DNA from: a virus
Taxonomy: Duplodnaviria; Caudoviricetes
Length of the DNA stretch: 57,019 nucleotides
Direction: 5' to 3' (one strand)
Virus record (IMG/VR): IMGVR_UViG_3300048839_000591
Span: 1-57,019 of that record
The notes under the pieces are model-generated. The model was not told the DNA's origin. It made no database searches and saw only the letters and a program-made list of their open reading frames with translations. Below are positions 3,651 to 30,134 of this stretch, piece after piece (position 1 is the first letter of the stretch; each line of letters opens with the position of its first letter). The position numbers and the translations under genes were made by a program.

Positions 3651-3666
3651 GTGATGAGCCTCCTAG

Positions 3667-3778
3667 AAACGAAAACGCCCGCCTCATTGCTGAAGCGGGC
3701 GCTCGCGCGGCGGCTCACCTAGTCATCAGGCGCGGCACGAATCCGTGCGGAGCCTTACTTGCTATTGGCTATATTATA
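3667..3778 (-). promoter_or_regulatory. Promoter (-10 TATAAT) plus structured leader ending in an intrinsic terminator, upstream of the tail tube gene
   Basis: TATAAT at 3778-3773; hairpin CGCCCGC...GCGGGCG followed by TTTTCGTTT just before the RBS. Confidence 0.65.
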
Positions 3779-9876: not shown

Positions 9877-11966
9877 GCCGTCTCCTCTAGCGTCAACTGC
9901 TGCGTCTGCTTGGCCGCTTCACGCTCCCAGTGAGCAATCCGATGGCGGGCAATGGTGACGTACTCCGCTTCGGCATCTATCCCGATGAAGCGGAAGCCCT
10001 GTCGAGCCGCACTACAGCCGGTCGAGCCACTGCCAGCAAAGCAATCGAGCACCAGCCCACCTGGCGGGGTCACTAAGCGCACCAACCAATCACAGAGAGA
10101 GAGCGATTTAACTGTCGGGTGAGAATTGGTCATGCCGTCGGGTAAGCCAAGGTTCCGTTCGCGCCTGCTCGCCTTCGCCTGATAGATTAGGGGCGCGTCG
10201 ATGTCCGGGTGGAACTGGGGGAAGAAGCGGGCAGCCGACCCCGTATCTGGTTGCCGTTCTACGTGAATGCGCCGCTCCAGTTCATTGCCTCGTAAGCCAA
10301 CGTGACGGCCTTTGCCATCCTGCCCAGTGCCGCCACTCTTGCGCTCCCCCGACTGCTCCCCAAGCACCCGGACAGGGCATGACTCGTGGCATCGCCAGGC
10401 GGTCACATGCTCGCCGGCGGTGTAGGACTCAGCGAGGCCGTCTTGGCCCGCATGGCCGTTCGTGCTCAGTCCACCTTTGCCGCGCTTGGCCGGATAATGG
10501 CCGTTGCCCTTGACCCGCGTGGTGCCGAGCGGGACGCAGTGCTCGGTGTGTTGCAGCAAAAGATTACTTGGCCATCTCCCGGTACTTAGAGTGTGGCTTT
10601 GACGGGTCAATGAGGTGAAGTCGTGCGTGATCGCCCCGCCGCATGAGCTGCAAGTTTTCGAGCCGGTTGTCCTGTTTGTCGCCGTTGATATGGTGGAGGA
10701 CGTGTCCGTCAGGGACGGGTCCATGGGCGTCTTCCCATACTCGTCGGTGCTCAAGTTGGTTTTTCCGAATTGGCTTGCGCTTAGTACCGCCTGGCTCGGT
10801 CCACTGGAGCATCCAATAGCCGTTTTGGAGGTATCGGAAAGGCCGTTCTCGTCCGCGCCGTTCATCGTCAGCTCGGCATTGCTTGGAACAGTAGATGCCT
10901 TTGTTGCTGGTGTTGCGGGTCTCTGATTCTTTGCCACAGCCTCGGCACACGAAGCGCAAAGGGATAGCTCTAGTTCCCATGATTGTTCATTCCTTACTCG
11001 CGTGGCTCCGATATTCACTGCTCCAACTGACCAACGGGCGATGTTGTCCACCATGCGCCCCTGTGGCGGCTTCTGTGCCATACAAACGGGTTCAAGGCTT
11101 GGCTTAAGCGACTGACGCCCGTAGAACCAGCCGTCCCAGGCTTTCGCGGCGTCGGTGGCGGGTGCGGTGATGTCGTAGTGTCCTTCAGTATTCGCGCCGA
11201 ATCCCCATTGAGTTGCGAACTCTGGTTTGTTGCTCGGCGTTCGCCATTTGCTATCTAAGACCTCGCGCTCGGCTTCGTCGTAGAGCCGTTCAAAGTCAGG
11301 CGACAAATCCAGTAATGAGCGGACCTGATCCCAATGCTGGCGCGGTGGCATCCCGCCTCGATGATCGGTGCGTGCCCAGTAGCACGACGACGACTTGATA
11401 CCGAGCACGCGATCAATATCGCTATGGCTGTACATTGAAGACTTGACCGCCTGCGCATACGCACGGGAAAAGGACTGCCAGGCCACCGGGTTACCCCCGG
11501 CCTTGTCCAGTTGCTTAGACAAATTAGTAGCCTTCGGGAACCCACTTCCGTAACACCACCCAATGAGCGGATGCAGGATGAACCCCGCGTCCTCGATGGC
11601 AACCGCCATGCGGTGATACGTCCGGCTGCCTCCGAATGCCAGCAGATAGCCCCCTGGCTTCAAGACGCGATAGACGGCCTGCCAGGTTTCGACGTTGAAC
11701 GCGACGCCGGTTGCGTCCCATTGCTTGCCCATAAAACCTTTGCCGTGGCTGCGTTGGTTGTAGAGTTCGCCGCCGCACTTCGGGCAGGCATTCGGGTTGC
11801 CGTCACGTCCACCGAGCACCCGGCCACAATCGCGGCACTTCTTGACATCGGGTACACGGTTGGTCAGGTCATATGGCGGGTCACAGACCACGGCGTCGAT
11901 GCTGTTCGGCTCCATGCCGCGCATCACGTCCAGCGCGTCGCCGTGGATGACCTGCCAGTCGCTCAC
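9873..11966 (-). CDS. Beta-class N4-C/N6-A DNA methyltransferase with large insertions
   Basis: DPPY precedes HPTVK and DCFAGSGSTG; GRWPSN; GTG start overlaps the GT4 stop. Confidence 0.88.
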   Translation of the reverse strand: MSDWQVIHGDALDVMRGMEPNSIDAVVCDPPYDLTNRVPDVKKCRDCGRVLGGRDGNPNACPKCGGELYNQRSHGKGFMGKQWDATGVAFNVETWQAVYRVLKPGGYLLAFGGSRTYHRMAVAIEDAGFILHPLIGWCYGSGFPKATNLSKQLDKAGGNPVAWQSFSRAYAQAVKSSMYSHSDIDRVLGIKSSSCYWARTDHRGGMPPRQHWDQVRSLLDLSPDFERLYDEAEREVLDSKWRTPSNKPEFATQWGFGANTEGHYDITAPATDAAKAWDGWFYGRQSLKPSLEPVCMAQKPPQGRMVDNIARWSVGAVNIGATRVRNEQSWELELSLCASCAEAVAKNQRPATPATKASTVPSNAELTMNGADENGLSDTSKTAIGCSSGPSQAVLSASQFGKTNLSTDEYGKTPMDPSLTDTSSTISTATNRTTGSKTCSSCGGAITHDFTSLTRQSHTLSTGRWPSNLLLQHTEHCVPLGTTRVKGNGHYPAKRGKGGLSTNGHAGQDGLAESYTAGEHVTAWRCHESCPVRVLGEQSGERKSGGTGQDGKGRHVGLRGNELERRIHVERQPDTGSAARFFPQFHPDIDAPLIYQAKASRRERNLGLPDGMTNSHPTVKSLSLCDWLVRLVTPPGGLVLDCFAGSGSTGCSAARQGFRFIGIDAEAEYVTIARHRIAHWEREAAKQTQQLTLEETA
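10564..10980 (-). CDS. HNH endonuclease nested in an alternate frame of the DNA methyltransferase
   Basis: CRGC..YCSKQC zinc finger, EHRRVW, HHINGDKQDNRLENL and H motifs; upstream AAGGA. Confidence 0.85.
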   Translation of the reverse strand: MGTRAIPLRFVCRGCGKESETRNTSNKGIYCSKQCRADDERRGRERPFRYLQNGYWMLQWTEPGGTKRKPIRKNQLEHRRVWEDAHGPVPDGHVLHHINGDKQDNRLENLQLMRRGDHARLHLIDPSKPHSKYREMAK

Positions 11967-13152
11967 GCCGCACGCTCCGTGGCATCCCCGAATATGCGCT
12001 CTTGAATGCTCGCCAGTACAGGCCGCCAATAGACATCAGTCACCAGGTCGGCATCGTATTCGAGCGCCCCTTGTCGGGCAGCCTGACGCATCAGCGCGGG
12101 ATTCGTGACCGCGTAGGCCGCTTCCAGTTGCTCGTAGATGGCCTCTGGCCTCGGGATGAACTGAAACGTATTCAGCCCGTTCCACCACGGTATCGTGTCG
12201 GTCTTGTCCACCTTCCAACCGCTGAAGCACAACTCGCTCATGGCCGTCCAGTCACCAACCAGCACCGGGCAGCCAGCGGCTTGCGCCTCCAGGATGCCGA
12301 TACCAAACCCTTCACCTTTGGCCACGTTCATGTAGAGGTCCGCCGCGTTATAGACCGCATTCATGTAGACATCACTGAAGCCAATCAGCATCGTGTACTG
12401 GTCGGCAAAGACGACATCGGGACCGATGCGTAAGCCCAGATGCTCGCAGAGGGCCAGCAGGTTCTCGCCGCCGAGTTCACCGCGTGCGCCGGTCGTGGTG
12501 TGCAAATAGAGCAGCGCGTCCGGGTGTTTGGTCTTCAGCATCTTGAAGGCAATGAGCTGTTCCACGAAGGCTTTACGGCTCGGGTTGCCCTTGTTGGCGG
12601 CGACCATGGCGACGATGTAGGCATCTTTCGGCAGGTTCAGTGCTTCACGGGCTGAGGCGCGGTCAGCCGGGTGAAAGACGGTCGTGTCGGTGCCATGGGG
12701 AACGTACATCGTTTCGATGCCCGCCTCGTGACACACCCGTTCACCGAAGCGACTGAACACAATCGGCTGGAATGACTGGTTGACCACCTGAGCAATGCCT
12801 TGAGGTAACGGCTCAGAATCGACCGGGAACCAAGGCACGTGGCGCACGCCATGGCCGTAGAACTGCGGCTGGCAGACCCAGGCGTCCATCAGCGTCAACG
12901 CGATGTGCGCCCCTTGGTGAGCAGCGTGGGCCGTGACCACATCTTGACTGTATGCCTGATGCCCGGACGGATAGACCTTGATGCCGTGCCACTCGATGAC
13001 GGCGCTATTCAGCCCCCAGAACGCGCTAATGGCAATCGGGTAACCGAGCAAATCCTTGATGCGTGGCACGAAGAGCTTGGTCTGATTCGCATAGCCGGTG
13101 TTCAATTAGTCCATGGCGCGTTGGAAAACCAACTAATCGTCATAGACTGCAT
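11963..13152 (-). CDS. GT4 (GT-B) glycosyltransferase; first 16 codons (13152-13105) separated from the body by TGA and a frame change
   Basis: WFSNAPW / TGYANQT N-terminal motif; VPHG.D, RK and GEGFGIGILEAQAAG motifs. Confidence 0.85.
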
Positions 13153-13247
13153 GGCATCACCTCCTTTCACCATAACGCCAACTCCTTGTTTACTTGTGCA
13201 CGGTGCGTTAGAATACAAGCGAACATTCGTGCATAAGGAGGCGGCGA

Positions 13248-14057
13248 GTGCCCAGAGGCGAACATGCCCGCAAGTTGACGGACGAACAGCGTCGTGAATT
13301 GGTATGCCTGTACACGACGCCAGCCGAGGATGGAACCTGGACGGGCGTCTATGCGATTGCCCGCCATTTCGGGATTAGTTCGACGGCTGTCCAATACTGG
13401 TTGAACCGCATGGGTGTACCGCAACGAACGTCGCAAGAGGCGTTTGCTCATGCCAAGCGAACGAAGCCCATCAAGAACGTTCCGCCTGATGGTGAACCGG
13501 CTCCGCTCTGTCGCTGCGGCTGTGGTGAATCGGTTGCTTGGAACCGGCGTAAGAATCACTGGAATGTCTACGCAGTAGGGCACTATCGACAAGACGCGCC
13601 GTACAAACATCGTGAATGGCTGATTGACCAGTACGTTACGCAGAATCGCACCATCGTTGACATGGCCGCTGACTGTGGCGTCGATGTTACCCAGATTACA
13701 CGGTTCATGGATCGCTTCGGTATCGACCGGCGCAACAAATCTGAGGCGCGTATTGGTCGTCAAGCTGGTGCAAAGAATCCGGCCTGGAAAGGTGGCACGA
13801 CGCCTGAGCGTCAACGGCTCTATAAAACGCAAGCGTGGAAAGACGTTATCAAAGCGGTCTACGAACGAGACGGGTATCAATGTCAACGGTGTGGAGAAAC
13901 CAAGGCTAGACCGAAGGGTCGCCATGCGCACCACATTCGACCGTGGGCCGATGATGTGAGCCTGCGGTTCGAGTTGAGCAACTTGGTCACGCTCTGCGAG
14001 CGTTGCCATATTTGGGTGCATAGTCGGGAGAATGTGAATCGAGACTTCTTGGTTTAG
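13248..14057 (+). CDS. HNH endonuclease with HTH/zinc-finger N-terminus, antisense to the late operon
   Basis: CRCGCG, NPAWKGG, ERDGYQCQRCG, HHIRPW, NLVTLCERCH; TAAGGAGG RBS; TTGTTT-N17-TAGAAT candidate promoter. Confidence 0.9.
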   Translation: MPRGEHARKLTDEQRRELVCLYTTPAEDGTWTGVYAIARHFGISSTAVQYWLNRMGVPQRTSQEAFAHAKRTKPIKNVPPDGEPAPLCRCGCGESVAWNRRKNHWNVYAVGHYRQDAPYKHREWLIDQYVTQNRTIVDMAADCGVDVTQITRFMDRFGIDRRNKSEARIGRQAGAKNPAWKGGTTPERQRLYKTQAWKDVIKAVYERDGYQCQRCGETKARPKGRHAHHIRPWADDVSLRFELSNLVTLCERCHIWVHSRENVNRDFLV

Positions 14058-14089
14058 TGTACTCACGCGGCGGTAGCTCCCTTCTGAGC

Positions 14090-14536
14090 CTACGGGCGCG
14101 CTCGCTCCTCGTCGGAGTAATACGAATAGGGGTCCATCGGATAGATAATCGACTCACGTCCCACGCTGTAGCCGCTATCAGCCACACCCAGCGCCAGGCA
14201 ATCGGCCTCGGCTTGCTGAAACGCCTTCTCGGCTTGCGTGTAGAGCTGTGAGCGTTTGAAGCTCTGGCCATCGGTGGTGAAGTCATAATGTGCGGCGGCG
14301 GCTTGCATCACCGCACGCCAAACCTCACGTCGTGCCAATGCTCGGAGCTTGCGCAGGTTGTCGCGTCCGCTGATGTCGCCGATCGCATCGGCACCATAGG
14401 CAGCCACGGCCTCGGCAATCGGCTCGTCATAGTGGCCGCTGGCTTCGTCCCAGCCCAGCACCGTCGCCACGTTGCCCAGCATCCGATGGAGGTAGGGCTT
14501 CAAGGTGGCCTCAGAGTACGTCGCTGGGAGCGCCAT
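14090..14536 (-). CDS. Putative head-tail connector
   Basis: Position after the capsid gene; YDFTTDGQSFKRSQ motif. Confidence 0.6.
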   Translation of the reverse strand: MALPATYSEATLKPYLHRMLGNVATVLGWDEASGHYDEPIAEAVAAYGADAIGDISGRDNLRKLRALARREVWRAVMQAAAAHYDFTTDGQSFKRSQLYTQAEKAFQQAEADCLALGVADSGYSVGRESIIYPMDPYSYYSDEERARP

Positions 14537-14769
14537 TACGCCGCCTTCCGGGGCTTGGCTGCCGGTTGTGGCTTCGTGGCTTCTGCGACCGCTTCAAGCG
14601 CCATGACCATGGCCTCACGCTCGTAGAGATGCCGCATGGCGCGGTCTTTGGCACCAGGCCGGTCGAAGCCCTCAGCCTCAACCCCGAACCGCTCGGCAAG
14701 CGTGCGGAGCGTGGCCTTCATCGCCTCGTGGGCGTTGCGTTCGCGGGCAATCAACAGGTCGCGTCGCAT
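14536..14769 (-). CDS. Small head-associated hypothetical protein
   Basis: GAGGGGAG RBS; TAATG coupling to the next gene. Confidence 0.6.
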   Translation of the reverse strand: MRRDLLIARERNAHEAMKATLRTLAERFGVEAEGFDRPGAKDRAMRHLYEREAMVMALEAVAEATKPQPAAKPRKAA

Positions 14770-14790
14770 CGAACTCCCCTCAACGAGTGG

Positions 14791-14817
14791 AGGCGGTAGG
14801 TTGCCCCACCGCCTGTA
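14791..14817 (-). terminator. Hairpin after the capsid gene
   Basis: AGGCGGT..GG-GCAA-CC..ACCGCCT; no U-tract. Confidence 0.4.
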
Positions 14818-14823
14818 TCGTCA

Positions 14824-15882
14824 CTAGACAGCCAACGGTGCGTTGAACGCCGCCGGCACCGCGTAGGTCGAATCGTGGCCCTTGTACCAGACCACCGCTG
14901 CCGTGCGGTCCTGCACGCCAAATCCGGCATAGCGGATATAGCGCTCTTCATTCAGGTTGCCGTTCGGGCTGTGCGACTCGCGGAACAAGCCCTGGAGCGC
15001 CGCGCTCGGGTACTCCCGCATCGCCAGCGGCGTGCGGCCCACCTGATGCGCCACCAGGTAGTCATCCGGGAGCGCCGACCACTCGACCAGCCAGACACGG
15101 CTCACCTTGCCGATGACCTCATCACCGAAGCCGCGTTCCAGCCGTCCGGTCAGGACATCGGAGCCGGAGCCCTCGGTAATATCGGCATCACCCACCTCGA
15201 CAAACTCATCAAGGGATGTCAGCTCGTCGACGAAGTTTCCATTGGCATAGGCCACAATCGGCCCGCCGCCCGCATTCGACAGGTGCTCAGTCAGTTCACG
15301 GCGAATGGTCGCCATCTTGTCGGCGGTGACCGCCGTACCGGCCAGGTAGTGGTCATCGGTGGCAAACGAGCCACCGACCACGTTGAAAGTGACCGTGTCG
15401 CCATTGGCCAGCGGTTGGACGGTGACGTCACCGGCTGGGTCCGCAAAGGTCCACGACTGGTTGTCCAACAGGCCAGCCAGCGCGTGGCGTCGCAACCAGC
15501 GGGCATCGCGCTCCTGAATGTCGATGACGTGCCGGTTGAGTTCTTCCACGGTCATGAGCGCGCGCGTCACACGGTTGTCGCCGTGCGCGTCGCCACCGCC
15601 CTGAATCGGGAAGCCGACCGTGTAGTAACCCGCCGGTCGGGTTGGCAAGGGATTGCCCCACTCATCGAGCGGCTGCAATTCGCCGGTGCCCGGCAACGTG
15701 AAGCGCCGGGTGCGCTCGGTGGTCCGGTCCACCATCGCGGCCAGCAGCCCGTTGGTAATCCGGTTGTGCTCATCGAGCGACTGAGCCAATGCGGTATTGA
15801 TAACCCGCAGGTCAACCTCAGTCACCCGCTCAGCGAAGAGGTGTTCGAGTCCAACGAATCCGAAGAGGACGTTCTCTGCCAT
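14824..15882 (-). CDS. Major capsid protein
   Basis: 352 aa following scaffold and decoration genes; LQPLDE, RYAGFGV..R motifs. Confidence 0.8.
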   Translation of the reverse strand: MAENVLFGFVGLEHLFAERVTEVDLRVINTALAQSLDEHNRITNGLLAAMVDRTTERTRRFTLPGTGELQPLDEWGNPLPTRPAGYYTVGFPIQGGGDAHGDNRVTRALMTVEELNRHVIDIQERDARWLRRHALAGLLDNQSWTFADPAGDVTVQPLANGDTVTFNVVGGSFATDDHYLAGTAVTADKMATIRRELTEHLSNAGGGPIVAYANGNFVDELTSLDEFVEVGDADITEGSGSDVLTGRLERGFGDEVIGKVSRVWLVEWSALPDDYLVAHQVGRTPLAMREYPSAALQGLFRESHSPNGNLNEERYIRYAGFGVQDRTAAVVWYKGHDSTYAVPAAFNAPLAV

Positions 15883-15894
15883 GATTCAGCCCCC

Positions 15895-16308
15895 TTACAG
15901 ATTCACGTAGAGCAGTCGATCGGGCGCGGTGCCAGCAGCGAAGTTGCTGACCACGTGACCGACTGGTACGCTGACCGACCCGGCAGCCGTTCCCAGCACG
16001 CCGGACGTATTCGAGAGGAACATCGCCTGCCCATAGTTGATGAGCGAGAGCGCGGTTCCCATGTCGATGATGCCTTTGGAAACGGCGGTTATAGCGATAT
16101 TCGCCTGGTTTGCGCCGGTTATCGCAATGCCGCGATTGCCTGCATGGCTGTCTGCCGCGTCGCCCATCGCCTTGACGAGCTTGCCCGTGGTGGCATCGAC
16201 GTGAACCGCCTGGCCTGCGGTGATTGCCTCACCAGCCGGGGCGGTAAACTGTTCGATGACCTGGACGGGAGCGACCTCCGCAGCAGCAACGGTTCCGATG
16301 TCTGCCAT
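15895..16308 (-). CDS. Capsid decoration/cement protein
   Basis: AGEAITAGQAV motif; Ala/Gly-rich; lies between scaffold and capsid genes. Confidence 0.7.
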   Translation of the reverse strand: MADIGTVAAAEVAPVQVIEQFTAPAGEAITAGQAVHVDATTGKLVKAMGDAADSHAGNRGIAITGANQANIAITAVSKGIIDMGTALSLINYGQAMFLSNTSGVLGTAAGSVSVPVGHVVSNFAAGTAPDRLLYVNL

Positions 16309-16320
16309 AGATGCCTCCGG

Positions 16321-16908
16321 TTAGAATCTCGGCTTGAAGTAGGGTTTTTCACGCCGCTGTTCAAGCGAGAGTTGTGAATCGTGGTCTGCCTTTGGCGTGG
16401 CCGGGACACCGTTCGTCTTCTGGCTGAATGAGGCGCGATTGGCCGCGATGTAGCGCAGTTGCTTGACCGGCGAGAGTTCGTCCAGAAGCGCCGTCACATG
16501 CGCCGGGATGCCTTCACGTTCCTTCTGCAAGAACTCGTTGAGCACGCCGGTCAGTTCGTCGCGTTCGGCTTCCAATTGGTCAAGCGTACCGACTTTGGAC
16601 TCTAATTCCAGAATCGTTTGCGCTCGTGTCTCAGCCAGTTCCTTGAACTGTTCGTTCTTGGCTAGTGCCTCTTCCGCACCTTTGCGCGCGGCTTTCTCTT
16701 CCGCGTCTTTGCGCTTCTTCTCTTCGCGTGCCAGCCGCTCCTTGAGGGATTCGGTGATATAGGCATCAAGCTCGTCACGGCTCGCGAAGCTAATCGGCTG
16801 CTCAGCCGGATTCCCGCCGTTTGGTTCCCCGGTGGCGTCTACCGGTGGCTGCTCAGTCGCTGGCGCGTCGGTGGTCTCGGGTGTCTCGGTCACGGGGTCT
16901 GCTCCCAT
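16321..16908 (-). CDS. Capsid scaffolding protein
   Basis: Acidic Pro/Thr N-terminus, coiled coil (ERLAREEKK), synteny; GTG at 16893 is an alternative start. Confidence 0.8.
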   Translation of the reverse strand: MGADPVTETPETTDAPATEQPPVDATGEPNGGNPAEQPISFASRDELDAYITESLKERLAREEKKRKDAEEKAARKGAEEALAKNEQFKELAETRAQTILELESKVGTLDQLEAERDELTGVLNEFLQKEREGIPAHVTALLDELSPVKQLRYIAANRASFSQKTNGVPATPKADHDSQLSLEQRREKPYFKPRF

Positions 16909-16973
16909 CGTTTACCGCCTTGGGATGAATCCCTTTACCGCCTGGCGTCCGGGCGTCAGGAGCGCGCGGGGTT

Positions 16974-17075
16974 AAACACAAAGAACCCGCTCGGTTCAGG
17001 CTGTTCACCTGATTCCGGCGGGCGTGCCGCGCTGTTATTGCGTCTAGTGTACGCTGTGTGCTATGGCAACGTCAA
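16974..17075 (-). promoter_or_regulatory. Promoter plus terminator-leader upstream of the scaffold/capsid operon
   Basis: TTGACG-N18-TACACT, then AGCGCGG-N5-CCGCCGGAA hairpin and TTCTTTGTGTTT. Confidence 0.7.
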
Positions 17076-17284
17076 TCTGGGGGTGTTTTCGACTCGAATT
17101 GCACACATCCGAACGTCTTGTGAGTAATCATTATCGAACCATGCTGTGCGAAGTCGCTCGCATACGCCAATGAGTTCTCATGTTCTGGTGTTTCGCCCTG
17201 TGCTCCAGTAAGCTGACACCAACCCCAATCGCTGTCTGGTGGTGAAGCATCCCACCACGTGCAGTCTTTGCAGTTGCCCATCAT
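17072..17284 (-). CDS. Small Cys-rich protein
   Basis: CKDC..WGWC..FGC; AGGAG RBS. Confidence 0.65.
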   Translation of the reverse strand: MMGNCKDCTWWDASPPDSDWGWCQLTGAQGETPEHENSLAYASDFAQHGSIMITHKTFGCVQFESKTPPD

Positions 17285-17289
17285 CGCTC

Positions 17290-18369: not shown

Positions 18370-18581
18370 GCTAACCGCCGATAAGGCAACAGGTGGGGGC
18401 CAATAATCGTACGCGCCTCAAAAAGATGGTTTGCCCCTAAGACAGTGCTATTATTCCGATCCGAAATCGCAACAGCCTGCCTGTACCACTGCTCAAATGT
18501 TTCAGGTGAAACATAGGGACGCCAATAAACGATGACAGCATCCGCAACGCAAGTATGCGGTTTCGGTTGTTTATGCCTCAC
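18366..18581 (-). CDS. Small hypothetical moron
   Basis: Coupled overlaps; flanked by duplicated gene-boundary sequences. Confidence 0.55.
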   Translation of the reverse strand: MRHKQPKPHTCVADAVIVYWRPYVSPETFEQWYRQAVAISDRNNSTVLGANHLFEARTIIGPHLLPYRRLA

Positions 18582-18621
18582 TCGTCAGCCTCCTCGCTAT
18601 GCTGGGCTACGGCCTGGACGG

Positions 18622-22399: not shown

Positions 22400-22400
22400 A

Positions 22401-22595
22401 TCACGCCGCGCTCGCAGTGGCCGAGCCGCCCTGCCAGACGGTGGTCGTGCCGCACTTCTCGCAGGTGATGCGCGCCTCAGTCGTCTCAATCTCGCGCTTC
22501 ATGCCGCCGCGTATGTGGGCACGGATGGTCAGCATGTCGCCGTGGCGTTCGGCTAACGGCTGTTCGCACTTGGGGCAGCGAATGAGCATCGCCAA
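22401..22595 (-). CDS. Com-like zinc-ribbon regulator
   Basis: IRCPKC..PLA and I.CEKCG motifs; first gene of the late operon. Confidence 0.7.
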   Translation of the reverse strand: MAMLIRCPKCEQPLAERHGDMLTIRAHIRGGMKREIETTEARITCEKCGTTTVWQGGSATASAA

Positions 22596-22609
22596 TCAGC
22601 ACCGTCCTT

Positions 22610-22686
22610 AAACGCGAAAACCGCCGGTTGCCCGTGGTTGGGGCATTTCCGGCGGTCAATCCGCGCTACTATGCACGATAAGTATA
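22610..22686 (-). promoter_or_regulatory. Promoter plus terminator-leader upstream of the Com-like/terminase operon
   Basis: TATACT, then AGCGCGG-N5-CCGCCGGAA hairpin and TTTTCGCGTTT. Confidence 0.7.
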
Positions 22687-22982
22687 GCCTAGAGTCCGCT
22701 GTGCTTGTGAGCGGCCTCCGTGACACCAGCAAAGAGCCGATTCGTCACCAAACGAGTCAACCAACGCATGCGTAATCGCAACATCACACGCCGGATGTAG
22801 AACGTCCCTCGCCGTAGCGCTCGGTGCGCCGTTCGTGCGTGCTGTGTCATGCCTCTTCTCCTCTCACCACACCACCACCGTCACCAGCGCCACGAGGACC
22901 GTCCACAGCCCGAGCCCCGGCCAGCGGTACGGGGTGCGTCCGAGCCAGAGCAGCACGGCGATGGCGGCGATCGTGGGGATGG

Positions 22983-23303
22983 TCATGCTAGACCATGTTC
23001 CTTCTCGTATACCCAGGCACACGCCTCGTTATATGAGCGTTGAAGCTGTGAATCGACCCACAACGAGGGAGTGCCGAGACGTTCAATTGCTTGACGTGAG
23101 TAGAGTTGAACGCCATTCACATGCGCCGTCCGCATAGCCAAGAACTCGCGCTCCCACGCCTGGATCTTTGCTTGCTTCTCGCGTTCTTGTTCAGCGCGCA
23201 CGTCCCTGCGACCATCAAGACGTCCAATCCGATAAACGATGACGAGCGACATGGCCATGCAGAAACCAACGGCAATCAACCTGACTATCTGTCCATCGTC
23301 CAC
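22983..23303 (-). CDS. Hypothetical membrane-anchored protein
   Basis: N-terminal hydrophobic helix. Confidence 0.5.
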   Translation of the reverse strand: MDDGQIVRLIAVGFCMAMSLVIVYRIGRLDGRRDVRAEQEREKQAKIQAWEREFLAMRTAHVNGVQLYSRQAIERLGTPSLWVDSQLQRSYNEACAWVYEKEHGLA

Positions 23304-23368
23304 CCTACGCCGCCTCTCTCACTGCGCGCTGAATCACCGTCAACGCCTCGCCGCTGTCCACCATGTCG

Positions 23369-23746
23369 TCACACAACCGGTATCACGCACACCGACACAC
23401 CCTCTTCACGCCCAAAGTAGCCAGCGGTATAGATGCGCGCGGTGACGCTGGTGATTTGCCGGTCATTGGCGTAACAGATCCCTTCCAGCGCATCGGCATA
23501 GCATTTGATAATGTTGTCCACGTCCCAGCGCCGTTTGAGCCGGTCAGGAACAATGATCTTGAGGTCAAGACACACCGGCCCATCGATCACCTCAGCACCG
23601 GCCTGTTTCGCAGCCCAGCCCACATCCTTGCGGTACTGCCGATAGCGTTCGGCCCGTGGCTGGCGGCTCCCTTTGAGCACTCTGGTAAAGGGCACTGGCT
23701 TACCTGGCACGGTGAACTCAATCGGCAGCGCCCGTGGGTCAGTCAT
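23369..23746 (-). CDS. rusA: RusA-family Holliday junction resolvase
   Basis: FTVPGKPVP, DVDN..K...DAL.G...NDRQI. Confidence 0.9.
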   Translation of the reverse strand: MTDPRALPIEFTVPGKPVPFTRVLKGSRQPRAERYRQYRKDVGWAAKQAGAEVIDGPVCLDLKIIVPDRLKRRWDVDNIIKCYADALEGICYANDRQITSVTARIYTAGYFGREEGVSVCVIPVV

Positions 23747-23963
23747 CGGCGGCCTCGTCTCCGTTGCACACCGAACGTCTCTAGAGCCAACTTGACCGCA
23801 GACACGACTTTGATCTCTGCCTGACGCTCACTATCGGCGTACAGATAGATACGGGCCATCTCCGGCGGGTAGCGTCGTCCATCCTCGTCAATCAGGACAC
23901 CCGCAAAGCTCAGCACCTTGCCTCGTCGTCCTTGCCACTGGATATCGTCACCAGTTCGCAGTT

Positions 23964-24329
23964 TCACGTCCCACCCCCGTCCTGGCCCTGGCCCGTCGCC
24001 GCGTCCGGTGCGAACATCATCTTCCAAAACGTCATCTCCCAGACTGGACCGGTGGGCTCGTCTTCCTCGACACGCCACGTCCGACGAAGATCAGCGACGG
24101 GGAGTCCCGCACGGAGAGCAACAGCTAAGGCACGGAATCCTTCAGACCGGTCCCCATGAAACCGAATGGTTGGCTCCGGAAAGGCGTGCCCCTCACCGCC
24201 CTGACAGGACTCGAACGTTTCAATACCGCCCAATCGAAGTGTTACGACCGCTTTCGCGATACCGGCGTCTAACGGCGGTTCAAAGTCTTGACTCTCAAAT
24301 GGTGGCAATGTGAATAACTCATACGTCAC
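23964..24329 (-). CDS. Hypothetical protein
   Basis: LDAGI...V..L...GIETFESCQG motif. Confidence 0.6.
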   Translation of the reverse strand: MTYELFTLPPFESQDFEPPLDAGIAKAVVTLRLGGIETFESCQGGEGHAFPEPTIRFHGDRSEGFRALAVALRAGLPVADLRRTWRVEEDEPTGPVWEMTFWKMMFAPDAATGQGQDGGGT

Positions 24330-24810
24330 GTTTCAACTCCATTCCGTCCGTCGCCGCGTCGTAGGAACTAATGACATCCTGTGCCTTGCGCCATTCACAA
24401 TCTGCGGTGTGGTCCATCGCGTTTCGGTCTTCGTCGTTTGAACTCCAATCGCCGCAGAAAAAGCAACAATACTCACTGTCTAACCATGTCATGTCAGGCG
24501 CAAAGAACGGGCGAACCGTCTCCACCACCCGTCGCCCCGCCGCCAGTTCCGCCACCACCGCGCTCCCGTCGTTGGCCAGGGCGGCCTTGATGACGCGATG
24601 TTGCTCCGTGTAGTCCAATCCTTGCTCTGGTTTGCCAATTGGGAAGTAGCGCCATGCCAATTCAAGAGCGCTCCGCAGCTCCACGTTCTGACCGTTGGCC
24701 GCGTCGAGCTGGCTGCGCAGGGCGGCGTTCTCGGTGAGCAACTTGGCCCCTGCGTCCACTGATGCCGCTGCGAAGATTTCGAGCCGTTCGTGCTCAGTCT
24801 CGTCACGCAT
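24319..24810 (-). CDS. Hypothetical protein (coiled coil plus CxxC..H..C)
   Basis: GGAGG RBS; overlaps neighbours. Confidence 0.55.
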   Translation of the reverse strand: MRDETEHERLEIFAAASVDAGAKLLTENAALRSQLDAANGQNVELRSALELAWRYFPIGKPEQGLDYTEQHRVIKAALANDGSAVVAELAAGRRVVETVRPFFAPDMTWLDSEYCCFFCGDWSSNDEDRNAMDHTADCEWRKAQDVISSYDAATDGMELKRDV

Positions 24811-25123
24811 CGCCGTACCTCCCGTTCAGCGCACGCATCTCTGCCTTGAGTGCATCCGATCGCGCTCTGACCGCATCCGGGTTCTCATAGGCGAACTCTG
24901 CTACTCGGATAACGGCGGCAAGCGTCTCTTCAGGCATGTTCGGGTCGCCGTTGACGTGGACCGGGCCGTATTTGGTCTCGACATAGAATCCGCCGTCAGA
25001 GTCGGGTGACTCGGCCAGACAGTCATCACACATCCACGGCTCATCCTCTGGCATGTCCGGCATGGGACGGCTACAGGTCCAACATTTACCGCTCATCATC
25101 GTCTCCGATTCAGCATCCGCCAA
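24803..25123 (-). CDS. Hypothetical zinc-finger protein
   Basis: CWTC..CDDC; true start may be downstream. Confidence 0.5.
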   Translation of the reverse strand: MADAESETMMSGKCWTCSRPMPDMPEDEPWMCDDCLAESPDSDGGFYVETKYGPVHVNGDPNMPEETLAAVIRVAEFAYENPDAVRARSDALKAEMRALNGRYGDA

Positions 25124-25151
25124 AACGCCCGCAGCGCGTCCGTCGTCTCAG

Positions 25152-25376
25152 TCATGCGTCGCCTCGCTCTCGCTCGGAATCCAGTGGCCACTCTAGCCAC
25201 TCAAAATGACAGCGACGGCAGTTCCGATGAATGTGCGGCTCATCAATCCGAATTCCATGGCTCCATGTGTCGAATTTCTCTTCACAATAGCGCGTCGTAA
25301 TGTCGTCATTTCCGCACTTACAGCAGACCGCATTCGGATCAAACCAGTCAGTCGGCATCTTTAGCCGCTTGCTCAT
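25152..25376 (-). CDS. Small zinc-ribbon protein
   Basis: CCKCG...CRRC.FEW. Confidence 0.55.
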   Translation of the reverse strand: MSKRLKMPTDWFDPNAVCCKCGNDDITTRYCEEKFDTWSHGIRIDEPHIHRNCRRCHFEWLEWPLDSERERGDA

Positions 25377-25753
25377 GCCGCTCTTCCTTCCACCAGCCGC
25401 ATCACAGCCCGTATCGCATCCTTGACCGCATCCGGCGTCCGCTCATCACGCCACACCATCACCACACGCAGCAGCTCAGTATCGTCGCCAATCGAGAGCC
25501 CCAGCGGGTCAAGTGGCGGGTAGCCAGCGGCCAGCAGCAGCCGGTCCCGTTCCTGGCTGGTGAGTCCCAGCGCATGGGCCAGTTGCAGCACCCGTTCGAC
25601 TCTCGGCCTCTTGCGGCCGTGCTCGTACTTGCTGATTTCGCCGTGGTCCTCGCGGTAGCCGGTGGTCCGTTCGGCAACGTCGAGCTGCGACAGGCCGCGT
25701 TCGGTACGCAGCAGCCGTAGGTGCGCGCCGAAGGTGTGGGGTTGGGCGCTCAT
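25373..25753 (-). CDS. XRE-family HTH regulator
   Basis: FGAHLR.LR..RGLSQ.DVA, ISKYEHG..RP, LL.AAGY. Confidence 0.85.
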   Translation of the reverse strand: MSAQPHTFGAHLRLLRTERGLSQLDVAERTTGYREDHGEISKYEHGRKRPRVERVLQLAHALGLTSQERDRLLLAAGYPPLDPLGLSIGDDTELLRVVMVWRDERTPDAVKDAIRAVMRLVEGRAA

Positions 25754-26241
25754 GCCACGGCCTCCCAGAGTGTCTTTTGTCCGGTCGGATGCTGGTCAAT
25801 CCGTGGTCGTGAGGGACAATCCCAAGTCCCGCCAGCCGTCTGATAGAGCGCTTTCCAGCCCGCAGCTACCAGGCTGATTCCCGGCTCTTCGGCCAAGGTG
25901 TAGGTCACGAGCCGCCGATAGCCAAGCGCTTTGGTTGCACGCCAGGCGGAGCCATAGAGCATCGACGCGGCGTTCTTCGTCCCGTCAGTACAGCAGCGGG
26001 TTACTTCGAGCGTCCAGCCGTTATCGAGTCCACGCGCCACCGGACGCCCAACCGTCACGACACCGACGATGCGGTCACCATCGTTGACCGCAATCCCGAA
26101 TTTCCAACCGACGGGTGGCAGGTGATGGCGGTGATGCTGCCGGATGAACGCACACGCTTCGGCGTAGGTGATGGGCTGCAAGTGCAAGCTCACAGTTCCC
26201 GCTCCCCGCGTCGTGGCCGTGCCCGCGTTCGTGCCGGTCAT
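25750..26241 (-). CDS. XF1762-family / Mom-like GNAT protein (candidate DNA modification)
   Basis: AFI..HHRH, VGRPVAR.LD, LEVTRCCTDG..NA.SMLY, GYRRLVTYTL. Confidence 0.8.
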   Translation of the reverse strand: MTGTNAGTATTRGAGTVSLHLQPITYAEACAFIRQHHRHHLPPVGWKFGIAVNDGDRIVGVVTVGRPVARGLDNGWTLEVTRCCTDGTKNAASMLYGSAWRATKALGYRRLVTYTLAEEPGISLVAAGWKALYQTAGGTWDCPSRPRIDQHPTGQKTLWEAVA

Positions 26242-26256
26242 GCTGTGCCTCCCTGC

Positions 26257-27123
26257 TCAATCGTCGTAGTCCGGTAACGGTCGATATGCAGCCTCGTCTT
26301 GCCCTCGGTGGACGCCATTCGGTGATGCTCGGCTCGGAGCGCACATCGCCACCATGAGCTGGTCGAATTTCTCGCGAAACTTGCCCATGCTCAGGATGTT
26401 CTTCAGCCAAAACGGGTCATGCTGCGACCACGAAATCACGGCCCGAATGTCGTCAAGCTCGCGCTCATCACGTTCTCGCATCAAGCGAACGTCGTTGGCC
26501 CAAGCCTGTAATTGCCGCTCAGTCGCCTTTTTCGCCTTGGGATTGTTCTCACGAATCAGCCGTTGCAGGAACAACGCCGTCTGGTATTCGTCCGAATCGA
26601 CCGAAAAGACCTCAGAAACCGTCCGCGTCGCGCTAGCGGCGTCGGACTTCGGACTTTCTTTCTCGTTTTCGGGAGTTAAACGGGGTACGGGTAGGGGTAC
26701 GGGGGGGTCGTTAGTAACGTTCGGAGTAACACCGTTACTAGCTGTGTTACGTGACTCGTTACTCGCTTCATTGATAACAGTGTTTGTCTTGTTCCGTTCT
26801 CGCCATTCCGCCTGCCGCCGTGCGTTCTCGGCTCGCTGTTGCTTCACGTCCTCAGAACTGGGGTTGTATTCCAGGTAGTCGTTGATCTGGTAGCCGCTTG
26901 ACATTTGGATCCACAGGCCACACCGAACCAATTCAGCGGCAACACTCATCTCCACGTCCACCATTGCCGCTGACAATCGCAACGCAGCCGGTGATACGTA
27001 GCCATCAGTCAGATTCGCCGCCGCGTAGGTAAGACACGCCATGTAAAGAAGCTTGGCGTCCTTGGTTCGATCAAGCACTTTGGGATGGGTGAAGAACTGA
27101 TCGTCAAGCTTGACCCACGCCAT
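26257..27123 (-). CDS. Replication initiator / replisome organiser
   Basis: WVKLDD.F..HPK, INDY.EYN, W...DPFW..NILS..KFR.KFD motifs. Confidence 0.8.
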   Translation of the reverse strand: MAWVKLDDQFFTHPKVLDRTKDAKLLYMACLTYAAANLTDGYVSPAALRLSAAMVDVEMSVAAELVRCGLWIQMSSGYQINDYLEYNPSSEDVKQQRAENARRQAEWRERNKTNTVINEASNESRNTASNGVTPNVTNDPPVPLPVPRLTPENEKESPKSDAASATRTVSEVFSVDSDEYQTALFLQRLIRENNPKAKKATERQLQAWANDVRLMRERDERELDDIRAVISWSQHDPFWLKNILSMGKFREKFDQLMVAMCAPSRASPNGVHRGQDEAAYRPLPDYDD

Positions 27124-27124
27124 T

Positions 27125-28486
27125 TCAGGAGCGCTCCATTCTGCCTGCGCCGAATCGTTCGGAGAAGTGGGCCGTCTCGGGATTCCAGGTTAATTCCACG
27201 TCGCCAATCGGCCCGTTTCGATGTTTCGCGACGATCAGTTCGGCGTTGAATTCCGGCTGGCTGCTGTCATAGAGAAACGGACGATGCAAGAACATCACGA
27301 CATCGGCGTCTTGTTCGATGGTCCCTGAATCCCGTAGGTCTGAGAGGCGCGGTCTGGCATCGCTGCCACGGGTCTCGATCGCGCGATTCAGTTGCGCCAA
27401 TGCCAGCACCGGCACGTTCAGATGCCGCGCCAATCCCTTGAGCGCTCGGCTCACTTTGCCGATGTCCTGGGTTCGGTTCTCGCGGCTGTTGGGTACGTCG
27501 ATCAAGTGCATGTGGTCGATCACAAGCAGGTCAAAGGGCTTGCGCCCGTACATCTCGATACAGCGCGCCAGGATGTCTTTCAGCGAACTGGATGACCGAT
27601 CATCAACGTAGAGGCTCATGCGACCCAGTTCGCCAAAGGCGTCGGCTACTCGGCTCGCAGCTTTCCCGTCGTCATCATCCTGCTTACCGGCATGCCGTCG
27701 TTGTAGGTGCCGGTGCATGTTGACGTTCGCCAGTTGCGCCACCCAACGGGTGCGTAATTCGTCGCGGCTCATCTCAAGTGAGACGATGGCAACCGCTTTA
27801 CCCGTCTTGGCAATGCCGAGTGAGATCTGCGATTGCAGCGCCGTTTTGCCGACCGATGGACGGGCAGCTAGGACAATCAACTGGCCAGGCAGAAACCCGC
27901 CGAACTTCCGATCAAGTGGCCCAAACTGCGTCCGAATTGGCTGCACAACCGGCGCGTCAAGCGCGTCATAGGCAGCGGACAGATCGTCGCGCATATCAAC
28001 GAAGCCGGTCGATGTGGACGCGCTTCGGATGCGCGACATCCGTTCTTCAATGCGCGCTTCGAGTTCAGCCGGGTCGGTAATCGTGGCGGCATCAATGAGG
28101 TTCTGCTTGGTCGCCTCAGTCAACTGGCGATGAATCGACGCCTTCTTGACTTCCTCGGCATAGTCGATGGCATAGATCGCGGTCGGGACGACATGCTGCA
28201 ACTCTTGGAGCAACTTCAACAGCGGTCCCAGTTCATCCGGCGCGCAGCCTAACTGACTCTGCACCGTCACGTAGTCGGGGTTTATTCGCTTCTCGTAGCA
28301 GGCGACGATCGCACGGTAGATCTGCTGATAATCCGGGTCGGAGAAATCGTCTGGTTGCAGAATCGGCACAACCGAGAGGATCACGTCGCGGTCGATCATC
28401 ATCGACCCGAGAACGGCGGTTTCAGCAGCCAGATTGATGAGGGGGGAATTAATCTCAGAGGCTGGGGGAATGGTAGAATCGTACAT
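27125..28486 (-). CDS. dnaB: Replicative DNA helicase
   Basis: AARPSVGKT, SLEM, AQLNR, SDLRDSG.IEQDAD, AKHRNGP. Confidence 0.95.
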   Translation of the reverse strand: MYDSTIPPASEINSPLINLAAETAVLGSMMIDRDVILSVVPILQPDDFSDPDYQQIYRAIVACYEKRINPDYVTVQSQLGCAPDELGPLLKLLQELQHVVPTAIYAIDYAEEVKKASIHRQLTEATKQNLIDAATITDPAELEARIEERMSRIRSASTSTGFVDMRDDLSAAYDALDAPVVQPIRTQFGPLDRKFGGFLPGQLIVLAARPSVGKTALQSQISLGIAKTGKAVAIVSLEMSRDELRTRWVAQLANVNMHRHLQRRHAGKQDDDDGKAASRVADAFGELGRMSLYVDDRSSSSLKDILARCIEMYGRKPFDLLVIDHMHLIDVPNSRENRTQDIGKVSRALKGLARHLNVPVLALAQLNRAIETRGSDARPRLSDLRDSGTIEQDADVVMFLHRPFLYDSSQPEFNAELIVAKHRNGPIGDVELTWNPETAHFSERFGAGRMERS

Positions 28487-28675
28487 CAGTCGTTGCTCCT
28501 ACTCACACTAGGGCGACGGTCAGCGGCCGGGTTGGTGTTGCAAGCACCGCTCGGTCGCGTTCTATTTCCCCCGATTGTATCACAAAACAGCATAAAACGC
28601 CTCATTCGTACGCATCATCGAACCACCGCGAACACCTTGGCACGCGGCGGCTTGAGCGGCTTGTCCTCTGGGAAT

Positions 28676-29152
28676 TCAGGAATCTTGGTGAGGGCAGCGA
28701 CCATAGGCACCGATCGCTGCGTTGCAGTTCCAACACAGCACGCGATACCCATCAGGCCAACCCAGCTTGCGAAGTCGGCGGTATTGTTGAGAGCCGCCCT
28801 TGTGTCCCTCTGCGAGACGTGCGGCGTTACCGCCTCCATTGATGTGGTCAAGAGTGAGGAATTCGACGGTCGATTCTCCACAACAAGCACATGTCGGAGG
28901 ATCACCGCCATACGCGATAAGCGCCGCCAACCGCAAGCGCTCCCGCTCACTTCTTCGGTGATCGTAATACTGCTTGTTGTAATCGGGGTGTTTCGCTCGC
29001 CATTCACGAGCGTACGCGGCTCGATAGGCACGAGCTTCAGGAGAGTCGCTATCCCATTTCGCTTTACCGCTAGGACGCGGCCCTGGTTTGCGACAGACAT
29101 GACTTCCGTCTGTCCGCATGAATTGCTTGCAAATGGGACACCGTTCAGGCAT
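28676..29152 (-). CDS. HNH endonuclease
   Basis: YGG..CACCGE, LTLDHING, VLCWNCN. Confidence 0.88.
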   Translation of the reverse strand: MPERCPICKQFMRTDGSHVCRKPGPRPSGKAKWDSDSPEARAYRAAYAREWRAKHPDYNKQYYDHRRSERERLRLAALIAYGGDPPTCACCGESTVEFLTLDHINGGGNAARLAEGHKGGSQQYRRLRKLGWPDGYRVLCWNCNAAIGAYGRCPHQDS

Positions 29153-29189
29153 GAGGCTTGGCTCCGCATAATGGAACTACCCTTACACA

Positions 29190-30134
29190 TTATCTTACCA
29201 CAGCAAACACTCTAGCTCTAGGCGGTTTCAGGGGTTTTGATGGATCACCCTTGACGTAGGGCGCGATCCACTTAGGTTGGTGAACTTGTCGTGAGCGATA
29301 CCACTGCTGACGCCAATGACCAGATACGACCCATTGGCAGGAGTACTCGCGATTCTCTACCGGCTGTGATCCATGTTTCGGGTGTGCTGTTCTTCGAAGC
29401 CGGATAACGCGCACTAACGGCACGTCGTCGATCATTCGTGCCGCTCGACGACGGGTCGGACGATCCGCCACCTTACGATCGGTCGCTAAGACCGTCTGCG
29501 AAATCAGCGCCCATGACGCAGCGAAATAGCGGAGCTTCATGGTCAGACGATTCAACTTATCAGGCGGGTCTGCGTTTGCTGCGCGGGCAGCAATGAACTC
29601 AAGGTCTTCGCCGCAATGCCAAGGAATATGCGTGACGGGTATGCCAGATGGATTAAGTCGCTCATCCGCTACATAGAACGTCACATAGAACGTCGAAGGG
29701 TACAGGCTCTCAGGTTCAGTGTTATCCATCAGCACGAAGTGCGATTCTTTCGGCGCAGGATCAACCACGATATTTCTGATACGAATCCAGCTCAACGCGG
29801 TTAGTGGTGCTATCCAGTCATCTCGCCACGGCTCAAGATTGAGTGGCCGTTCAAACCAAAGGAAGCCGTTGTCAGTCGGCATCTGATCAAACGTCAGCGT
29901 CCAGTTGGGCATGTTCTCTGCTGCTATCTCCAAGAACGAGCACATCTCAGATGACCAATAGAAGGGATCACCCAATAGAAGCGCCCGACGAGGAGCACCA
30001 AACATCATTTCTTTATTTGACTCAGATGCCGTAACGCGGCTAAGTTGTGCATTCCAGAGTGCCTGCCCACGTTCTGACTCCATGAAGTCAAGGATTTCCA
30101 CCTGTTTCGCAAGAGCGCGGGAGTACTCGTGCAT
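29190..30134 (-). CDS. Conserved phage hypothetical protein
   Basis: C-terminal WVVSGHWRQQWY..WIAPYVKG motif. Confidence 0.7.
   Translation of the reverse strand: MHEYSRALAKQVEILDFMESERGQALWNAQLSRVTASESNKEMMFGAPRRALLLGDPFYWSSEMCSFLEIAAENMPNWTLTFDQMPTDNGFLWFERPLNLEPWRDDWIAPLTALSWIRIRNIVVDPAPKESHFVLMDNTEPESLYPSTFYVTFYVADERLNPSGIPVTHIPWHCGEDLEFIAARAANADPPDKLNRLTMKLRYFAASWALISQTVLATDRKVADRPTRRRAARMIDDVPLVRVIRLRRTAHPKHGSQPVENREYSCQWVVSGHWRQQWYRSRQVHQPKWIAPYVKGDPSKPLKPPRARVFAVVR

Follow-up and report, generated by a model that had tools for sequence, protein, structure and literature searches.

We have analyzed the 57,019-base record IMGVR_UViG_3300048839_000591 of the IMG/VR virus database (hereafter the window, i.e., the whole linear record, with a CheckV completeness estimate of 74%). 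It belongs to an uncultured phage of 60% guanine plus cytosine (GC), and one of its three HNH endonuclease genes, HNH1, is lodged out of frame inside a gene for an N6/N4 DNA methylase. The methylase frame crosses HNH1 without a stop, and a host frame likewise free of stops was found, in the same relative phase, in each of the 37 distinct embedded copies collected from relatives. It is because of these comparative counts, and not of the window alone, that we judge the open frame of HNH1 to be selected and reject pure chance as its explanation. An original prediction, made from the sequence alone, had seen in all three HNH genes (HNH1, HNH2 and HNH3) splicing-free, translationally transparent homing endonucleases, each crossed by an open host frame. 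The three open frames are all present where they had been placed, so that the observation is real yet uneven, and the interpretation is supported, strongly so by the comparison with relatives, for one element of the three. Overall, we consider it quite probable that HNH1 is a hidden read-through nuclease, that the frame opposite HNH2 is a shadow open reading frame (ORF) and that HNH3 stands at a recombination scar.

An HNH gene inside a methylase gene

The methylase keeps the motifs DPPY, GRWP, HPTVK and FAGSGS within one ORF, on both sides of the insert, as seen by alignment with the uninterrupted methylases Quico gp82, Cookies gp96 and VLCpiS10a (Table 1; the true start is probably further in than the first TTG). 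Where these three have about 4–45 residues, the window methylase carries an extra in-frame segment of 414 nucleotides (nt), a multiple of three, that is almost wholly HNH1 ORF, with an excess of only about 14 nt on the 5' side. The ATG of HNH1 is located 14 nt into the segment, behind AAGGA, and the 3' end of the gene (the last five codons and the TAA stop) overlaps the GRWPSN codons of the methylase. The distance from the start of the methylase ORF to that of the HNH gene is 1049 nt, which places HNH1 in the methylase frame +2 and makes the host the +1 frame of HNH1. Over the 139 codons of HNH1 this +1 frame has no stops. The HNH1 protein has an N-terminal Cys-rich finger, and the His/Asn core columns are invariant in the alignment with its relatives.

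We propose that HNH1 is a homing-type HNH_3 endonuclease gene that would need neither an intron nor an intein to live inside its host gene. The methylase would be translated straight through, gaining about 138 poorly ordered and fast-evolving residues in a segment already length-variable among homologues, and the nuclease would be made separately from the same mRNA, starting at its own ATG behind the Shine-Dalgarno-like (SD-like) motif. In this HNH clade, selection would hold the +1 frame clear of stops and thereby leave the host gene in one piece. For a +1 stop to arise, an NTA or NTG codon must stand directly before one whose first letter is A (or G), a combination that synonymous choice can mostly avoid, and judging from the genetic code +1 is probably the cheapest frame to keep open. 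We infer that the read-through methylase would be made and active, that HNH1 would be translated from the internal start, and that it would home.

The window alone does not make the open frame of HNH1 significant. The window has 59.8% GC, its minus strand carries most genes, and its codon-position GC pattern is 0.63/0.46/0.71, with a third-position GC (GC3) of 0.71 in the long genes. A rough self-trained codon model gave 65 predicted genes, and we used the 64 non-HNH genes to count stops in the alternative frames, named +1 and +2 on the same strand, a0 for the codon-aligned antisense frame and a1 and a2 for the other antisense frames. The stops per codon were 0.031 in +1, 0.044 in +2, 0.013 in a0, 0.033 in a1 and 0.040 in a2. 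The 35 of these genes with at least 130 codons were fully open in +1 in no case and in a0 in two. When windows were slid over the predicted genes, 153 of the 7410 windows of 139 codons (2.1%) were open in +1, as were 1.9% of those of 159 codons and 1.6% of those of 191 codons; in a0, 392 of the 4190 windows of 270 codons (9.4%) and 8.4% of those of 299 codons were open. Besides, we made matched shuffles that kept the amino-acid content of each HNH gene (5000 trials each), shuffling in turn the codon order, the synonymous codons within the gene, the synonymous codons by genome usage, and both. The +1 frame of HNH1 was open in 0.07, 0.58, 0.11 and 0.026 of the trials, respectively. The comparison of stop frequency with codon-shuffled controls, proposed in the original prediction, was significant in the window for none of the three elements, and it is significant only for HNH1, by way of its relatives. 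Megablast of positions 9300–14600 against GenBank phages gave no match, and for the methylase ORF (9873–12029) no sequencing runs were listed.

The relatives were found by scans with HNH1 and an alignment of its closest relatives, which gave 56 loci in IMG/VR and 24 in metagenome contigs; a scan of a genome contig collection with the HNH alignment found no relative. We read by eye 14 of the 56 IMG/VR loci and 20 of the 24 metagenome loci (L062–L081), and tabulated all 80 together with the window. Six IMG/VR loci (four of them distinct), 48–64% identical to HNH1, and all 20 of the metagenome loci read (36–75% identical) lay within methylase-like ORFs, and in every one the host frame was the +1 frame of the HNH gene and crossed it without a stop. 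In a tblastn search with three uninterrupted methylases, methylase segments abutted the HNH ORF at 39 loci, with no +1 stop in any of the 39, a check that lifts the circularity of the embedded class only where methylase flanks are detectable.

After removing identical proteins and ORFs below 70 codons, 35 distinct embedded copies remained, with not one stop in +1 over 4997 codons. Their +2 frames held 1–18 stops each, at a density per 100 codons of 9.3 for GC < 0.5 and 2.6 for GC >= 0.5. The 33 distinct free-standing relatives, in contrast, had 6.7 (GC < 0.5) and 2.9 (GC >= 0.5) stops per 100 codons in +1, with 1–23 stops each, and were open in no case. The embedded copies formed 27, 17, 8 and 4 clusters at 90, 70, 60 and 50% identity. 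The product of the shuffle probabilities was 3.9e-20 (codon order) and 6.0e-11 (synonymous) for the 17 representatives at 70% identity, and 2.6e-9 and 8.2e-6 for the 8 representatives at 60%, values that are overstated and no true probabilities because the lineages are related; the contrast with free-standing relatives of like GC is independent of them. A scan with the methylase as query added 22 further relatives, and two of these (L110 and L128) had a hidden HNH gene, again in the same phase. This brought the total to 37 distinct copies, all with the host in +1 of the HNH gene and a stop-free host frame. Their host ORFs, 36 of which are methylases or methylase remnants, span GC values of 0.34–0.66. 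Nearest to an exception is L010 (2837–3454), a free-standing gene (197 codons) that has just one stop in +1, a frame in which no host gene could be recognised.

By our own grouping of the per-locus rows, about 16 of the 37 copies share the window's position immediately before GRWP, about 12 lie between AKAS and HPTVKP, about 5 follow GRWP by some 25–30 residues, 3 come after KPxxEP, and 1 is in a terminase ORF. The latter (L034) has an HNH_3 gene of 243 codons (2872–3600), without +1 stops and out of frame in an 838-codon ORF for a terminase large subunit (1223–3739). This host matches Terminase_6N, and phrog_38 over residues 37–465, and the HNH gene spans about residues 550–792, past the terminase-matching part. 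This may represent either an insertion close to the 3' end or a read-through extension.

We modelled the window methylase with AlphaFold2 (21-sequence alignment; mean predicted local distance difference test, pLDDT, of 55.8, the shallow alignment possibly contributing to the low scores). The blocks of the methylase core had mean pLDDT values of 80–97 and those of residues 343–483 of about 28–46, with one short helix. When the sites were mapped by motif, the three 3'-most ones (before GRWP, after GRWP and before HPTVKP) fell within the poorly modelled residues of the window methylase (about 343–616), and the KPxxEP site upstream of them.

An SD-like motif was found at -18 to -4 of the HNH start in 24 of the 37 distinct embedded copies, many of them plain AGGAGG or AAGGAG, vs. 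1397 of 8087 control positions (17%). The substitutions at codon positions 1, 2 and 3 of the HNH gene, over 37 pairs of related copies, were 504, 371 and 968, and the peptide encoded in the methylase frame differed about 1.3–5 times as often as the HNH protein (25% vs. 6% between L063 and L064). This third-position excess, together with the faster methylase-frame peptide, indicates that the HNH protein is the constrained one, with the read-through peptide as a passenger in which the lack of a stop is what is conserved.

The HNH copies of L004, L005 and L009 are 57–61% identical vs. 39–42% for their host methylases. One and the same HNH protein was found in L069 (1884–3482) and L070 (671–2317), in methylases with differing N-terminal parts, and the pattern of these two loci and the window suggests recombination within the methylase gene. 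A Cys-rich segment (CxxC...CxxC) after DPPY is common to the window (11736–11864) and L070, and L069 is without it. In relatives we saw by eye a GQRP-like stretch before the HNH gene that resembles the GRWP after it; it is not visible in the window. In some methylases with a hidden HNH gene there is a second long in-frame stretch that looks like junk, located between AKxS and HxT.KP in L063 (3–1519) and L071 (2–1247), and between two copies of the KP..EP..A.KP motif in L079 (1287–3437) and L080 (639–3053), the site used in phage Pollywog (see below). These second segments hint at multiple transparent insertions in one gene.

Table 1. Features of the window discussed in the text, with their positions and strands.
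Feature	Position	Strand	Description
N6/N4 DNA methylase ORF	9873..12029	-	718 codons from first TTG; PF01555 E 1.7e-25; phrog_67 E 8.9e-53
Extra in-frame methylase segment	10581..10994	-	Residues 346-483, 138 codons, between NIxxxRV and GRWPSN; by alignment
HNH1, HNH_3 endonuclease gene	10564..10980	-	138 residues; PF13392 E 1.4e-16; phrog_1891 E 6e-17
AAGGA, weak SD-like motif	10991..10995	-	11-15 nt before HNH1 ATG, inside methylase coding sequence
HNH2, free-standing HNH gene	13248..14057	+	269 residues; PF01844 E 8e-10; phrog_8446 E 7.3e-36
Antisense ORF (probable shadow)	13167..14066	-	299 codons, GTG start; a0 frame of HNH2
Gene A	29190..30134	-	314 residues; phrog_15934, function unknown; complete, own stop
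T1, C-terminal tail of gene A	29190..29246	-	Gene A ends ...YVKGDPSKPLKPPRARVFAVVR
HNH3, HNH endonuclease gene	28676..29152	-	158 residues; phrog_2255 'HNH endonuclease' E 7.3e-8
ORF B	28615..29190	-	191 codons, ATG start; +1 frame of HNH3, running into T2
T2, second copy of gene A tail	28615..28671	-	PEDKPLKPPRAKVFAVVR + stop; starts 4 nt after HNH3 stop

The open frames at HNH3 and HNH2

All three elements are indeed HNH genes, as had been predicted. The Pfam HNH models recognise two of them (PF13392 in HNH1 and PF01844 in HNH2) and the third, HNH3, is recognised by PHROGs alone (phrog_2255), with no Pfam family at E <= 0.01. The further claim that each is crossed by a host-continuous frame holds for HNH1, where that frame is the methylase, and fails for the other two, since the ORF at HNH2 is a lone antisense ORF and ORF B, at HNH3, is out of frame with gene A.

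HNH3 begins 38 nt downstream of the stop of gene A, with GGAG about 11 nt before its ATG. ORF B matched no family of Pfam or PHROGs. It is offset from gene A by a single base and shares one base of its ATG with the gene A stop. It ends in T2, which equals the C-terminus of the gene A family member P0005; closer family members end in ...YVKGPEDKPLKPPRAKVFAVVR, identical to T2. The two tails T1 and T2 match as protein over the last 15 residues, and most of their synonymous sites differ. The GC3 values are 0.26 for T1, 0.74 for T2, 0.54 for gene A and 0.52 for HNH3. Gene A was missed by the self-trained codon model and its GC3 is atypical for this genome. Both gene A and HNH3 were probably acquired recently from a foreign source.

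The order of events at gene A, as we infer it, would be the following. Gene A and HNH3 would have entered together from a donor of lower GC by homing with co-conversion, T1 being a variant of the target, and the right-hand junction would have left the last 18 codons of the resident allele (T2) just after the HNH3 stop. ORF B would then be that scar, read back through an alternative frame open by chance. We group HNH3 with the incoming gene A and not with the resident tail because its GC3 is like that of gene A and unlike those of T2 and the genome. In the matched shuffles the +1 frame of HNH3 was open in 0.27, 0.25, 0.08 and 0.13 of the trials (same order as for HNH1), and the phase match of ORF B with T2 adds a further factor of one in three.

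An alternative is that HNH3 was formerly a transparent insertion in gene A, between the KG and PEDKPL codons, and was later uncoupled when an uninterrupted gene A allele recombined in on the upstream side, ORF B being the 3' part of the old interrupted gene. Two observations speak for it and weigh against a scar. ORF B begins M-C-K-G and ends ...PEDKPLKPPRAKVFAVVR, with T2 beginning PEDKPL, so that a single open frame holds what look like both parts of the family motif KGPEDKPL (YVKGPEDKPL in its longer form). Further, HNH3 is crossed in +1, like the elements in methylases, and the shuffled HNH3 gene is expected to have only 0.75 stops per 100 codons in +1, vs. 1.31 for embedded copies of GC >= 0.5 and 2.57 for free-standing ones. 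However, the C-K-G match amounts to three residues, the chance of an open frame is 0.08–0.27, and the GC3 of HNH3 (0.52) is close to that of gene A (0.54) and far from those of T2 (0.74) and the genome (0.71). Actually, a search of the gene A family (172–550 residues) gave 36 proteins of 198–401 residues, none long enough to hold the insert, and no interrupted homologue of gene A was found. We consider this former insertion unlikely, and that HNH3 is a transparent insertion is doubtful.

The relatives of HNH3 are too few and too distant to test transparency: L060, whose surroundings are very rich in GC, matches part of HNH3 with 48% identity and has one +1 stop. Another candidate relative, L061, was discarded as a spurious match inside a large ORF. 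We also discarded a longer gene A remnant under the 3' end of HNH3 (VAALTK vs. IAPYVK), the match being too weak and the same bases encoding an HNH C-terminus that is conserved in L060. In 3 of 20 distant relatives of gene A (L088, L092 and L097), a regular expression matched a Cys/His-rich, HNH-like ORF at or just after the end of the gene A homologue. HNH genes may land repeatedly at the 3' end of gene A.

HNH2 is a free-standing HNH gene of the ordinary kind. It lies on the plus strand between two genes of the minus strand, a glycosyltransferase (11963–13105) and an ORF of unknown function (14090–14536), and has 7 stops in +1, like free-standing relatives. The ORF opposite to it has no Pfam or PHROG family and is in the frame of neither neighbour, and its GC by codon position is 0.58/0.48/0.59 vs. 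0.63/0.46/0.71 for the genome. An a0 frame is open whenever the codons TTA, CTA and TCA are absent, and these are rare at this GC. The a0 frame of HNH2 was open with a probability of 0.15–0.16 in the shuffles with genome codon usage, and of 0.084–0.094 by the sliding windows. The relatives L106 and L107, with 6 and 3 a0 stops, are of low GC and too few and distant to test HNH2. This ORF is probably a shadow frame of a 60% GC genome and not a gene. Two other shadow ORFs were seen on the plus strand opposite real minus-strand genes, at 14875–16377 (500 codons) and 44575–45882 (435 codons), and they illustrate the ease with which a long antisense frame remains open in this genome.

Weighing the read-through reading of HNH1

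Several points count against a selected read-through insertion at HNH1. Permuting its own synonymous codons leaves the +1 frame open in 58% of the trials. The embedded class is partly defined by the open frame itself, and its members share ancestry, so the counts are not independent. The native methylase residues 484–616 have pLDDT values below 50, like the insert, and the model says little on the activity of the read-through enzyme. Besides, the host is not always preserved, since some host methylases look damaged although their HNH gene is intact: in L008 (2270–3802) the C-terminal part is in another frame, in L046 (2468–4195) the N-terminal part is, and the hosts of L067 (2328–2933) and L068 (96–701) are 202-codon remnants without most of the enzyme.

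Such degraded hosts would be expected if the methylase were dead or dispensable and the open frame only reflected a young insertion or an inherited chance lack of +1 stops. Single copies are also fairly often open in the matched shuffles (P up to 0.78), and the mycobacteriophage methylase that carries the comparable ShiLan domain (see below) is not essential according to the text of Arsenault, Gosselin & Gogarten (2025, PMC11855218). However, copies that have diverged to 36% protein identity, in hosts of 0.34–0.66 GC, have in no case gained a +1 stop, even though their +2 frames hold 1–18 each and free-standing relatives of similar GC carry 3–7 stops per 100 codons. Most hosts also keep the catalytic motifs DPPY and FxGSG on both sides of the insert. 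We find a dead methylase very unlikely as the general explanation.

That all three HNH genes are selected, transparent insertions, the full claim of the original prediction, is highly improbable. Three open focal frames give a naive product of matched-shuffle probabilities of about 1e-3, HNH1 and HNH3 are both crossed in +1, and the codon pool of HNH3 is poor in combinations that give +1 stops. However, gene A has its own stop with ORF B out of frame to it, and none of its 36 relatives found among proteins of 172–550 residues is of a length to contain the insert. The ORF of HNH2 is antisense, belongs to no host gene, and occupies a commonly open frame (2 of 35 long genes; 8–9% of windows). The stops in the relatives, in a0 (L106 and L107) and in +1 (L060), go in the same direction. 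A transparent endonuclease without splicing is retained for HNH1, on account of its relatives, dropped for HNH2, whose frame is an a0 shadow, and left doubtful for HNH3.

Hardly credible, finally, is that the HNH1 segment is spliced out, as a group I or II intron with an HNH ORF or as an intein, and that the frame is open only incidentally. HNH genes are often found in phage group I introns, inteins occupy conserved sites, and the insert does border a conserved motif. However, Rfam detected no intron family, either in 9800–14600 at E <= 1 (where only a chance-level small RNA match appeared) or in the whole window at the gathering score (where nothing did), and a segment that is nearly all HNH ORF leaves no room for a ribozyme core. 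The HNH gene is out of frame with the host. Pfam at E <= 0.01 found no Hint or intein family in the 718-residue methylase ORF, only methyltransferase families and a weak YhfH. The extra segment (residues 346–483) has no confident predicted fold and no Pfam family above the curated cut-off, with YhfH below threshold at residues 453–467 (19.7 bits vs. a cut-off of 27). Introns would not be expected to leave the host frame free of stops in all 37 of the 37 distinct copies. The ShiLan domain was likewise negative by RNAweasel and structure prediction (PMC11855218). There is, thus, no detectable intron or intein signature at HNH1, which is an absence of signatures and not a proof against splicing.

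Known systems and meaning

The read-through arrangement of HNH1 is a rediscovery of a recently published mechanism. An unexplained 'ShiLan domain' was described as moving between divergent mycobacteriophage methylases (Gosselin et al. 2023, PMC9957025). According to the text of PMC11855218, this domain encodes, in the third reading frame, an HNH endonuclease, the frame of the methylase is without stops, the prediction for the insert is that it loops out and a second hidden-HNH insert and site, in Pacc40, is described (section 3.6). A ShiLan-type insert is also annotated in the genome announcement of phage Applejack (PMC12613952). HNH1 resembles the ShiLan domain, as described in that text, in being inside an N6/N4 DNA methylase of the same host family, on the same strand and out of frame, with a stop-free host frame, no intron or intein signature, a poorly ordered predicted insert and a stop at the very end of the insert. 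The differences are in the HNH gene itself, of 138 residues without a second C-terminal zinc finger and with an ATG and an SD-like motif in HNH1, vs. 195 residues and a proposed leaderless GTG start without ribosome-binding site in ShiLan (PMC11855218).

The window methylase is 41–48% identical to those of Quico, Cookies and Pollywog. In Pollywog, a hidden HNH gene of the same relative frame lies in gp67 (628 residues), inside a duplicated KP..EP..A.KP motif, a site different from that of HNH1 before GRWP (NIxxxRV/GRWPSN); its identity to HNH1 is 35% (E 3e-12). The name Pollywog is absent from the text of PMC11855218. By sequence comparison HNH1 classifies as a new member of the ShiLan-like hidden HNH genes, distinct in both insertion site and HNH clade. 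A word search of the main text of PMC11855218, which presents the arrangement for a small number of actinophages, finds neither 'selection' nor 'metagenom', and the evidence for selection and the breadth given here seem to go beyond that main text.

Out-of-frame or antisense endonucleases inside inteins have also been described (bioRxiv 10.1101/2025.01.02.630785; 10.64898/2026.09.14.751524). As presented there, they share with our elements an endonuclease gene in another frame or strand of an open host coding sequence, and they differ in that the intein splices the extra peptide out, whereas HNH1 has no detectable splicing domain and the antisense ORF of HNH2 is in no host gene. The HNH endonucleases of group I introns of the I-HmuI type similarly interrupt a phage gene next to a conserved sequence; HNH1, however, is without a ribozyme by Rfam, in an insert that is essentially ORF only, and its host frame is open. 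Introns do not require an open host frame. In phage T4, the bypass element of gene 60, with mobA, splits the gene in two and makes ribosomes hop over 50 nt. There too a homing-endonuclease insertion in a coding region is tolerated at the level of translation, but at HNH1 the ribosomes would read through about 414 nt. The free-standing endonucleases of the T4 seg/mob type resemble HNH2 and HNH3 in standing alone between host genes, and their co-conversion resembles the foreign composition of gene A and the remnant of the resident allele at the HNH3 junction. The homing of HNH2 and HNH3 is putative, and to take the duplicated 3' gene end as a scar is our own reading of the sequence.

The window itself is mostly ordinary, with one element of a known type, one probable shadow ORF and one probable recombination scar. 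What is added here is comparative evidence that selection keeps the frame stop-free across a wide clade and at several insertion sites. To our knowledge, homing endonucleases have been thought to survive inside genes only by way of self-splicing introns or inteins. An open alternative frame, with the nuclease tolerated by the host protein as an extra loop, would be a cheaper route. We lean towards the view that an HNH_3 clade has been purged of +1 stops by selection and so made portable into coding sequence in one phase, a third way besides introns and inteins. This portability would extend to four methylase sites in phages of 34% to 66% GC, possibly to the terminase ORF of L034 and possibly once to gene A. 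Gene callers hide such a nuclease by annotating the methylase as one long protein, and dual coding of this kind would constrain codon choice measurably. With 37 copies at four methylase sites, their GC range, the substitution pattern and the enrichment in SD-like motifs, a mycobacteriophage curiosity becomes a selection hypothesis that may be tested at scale.

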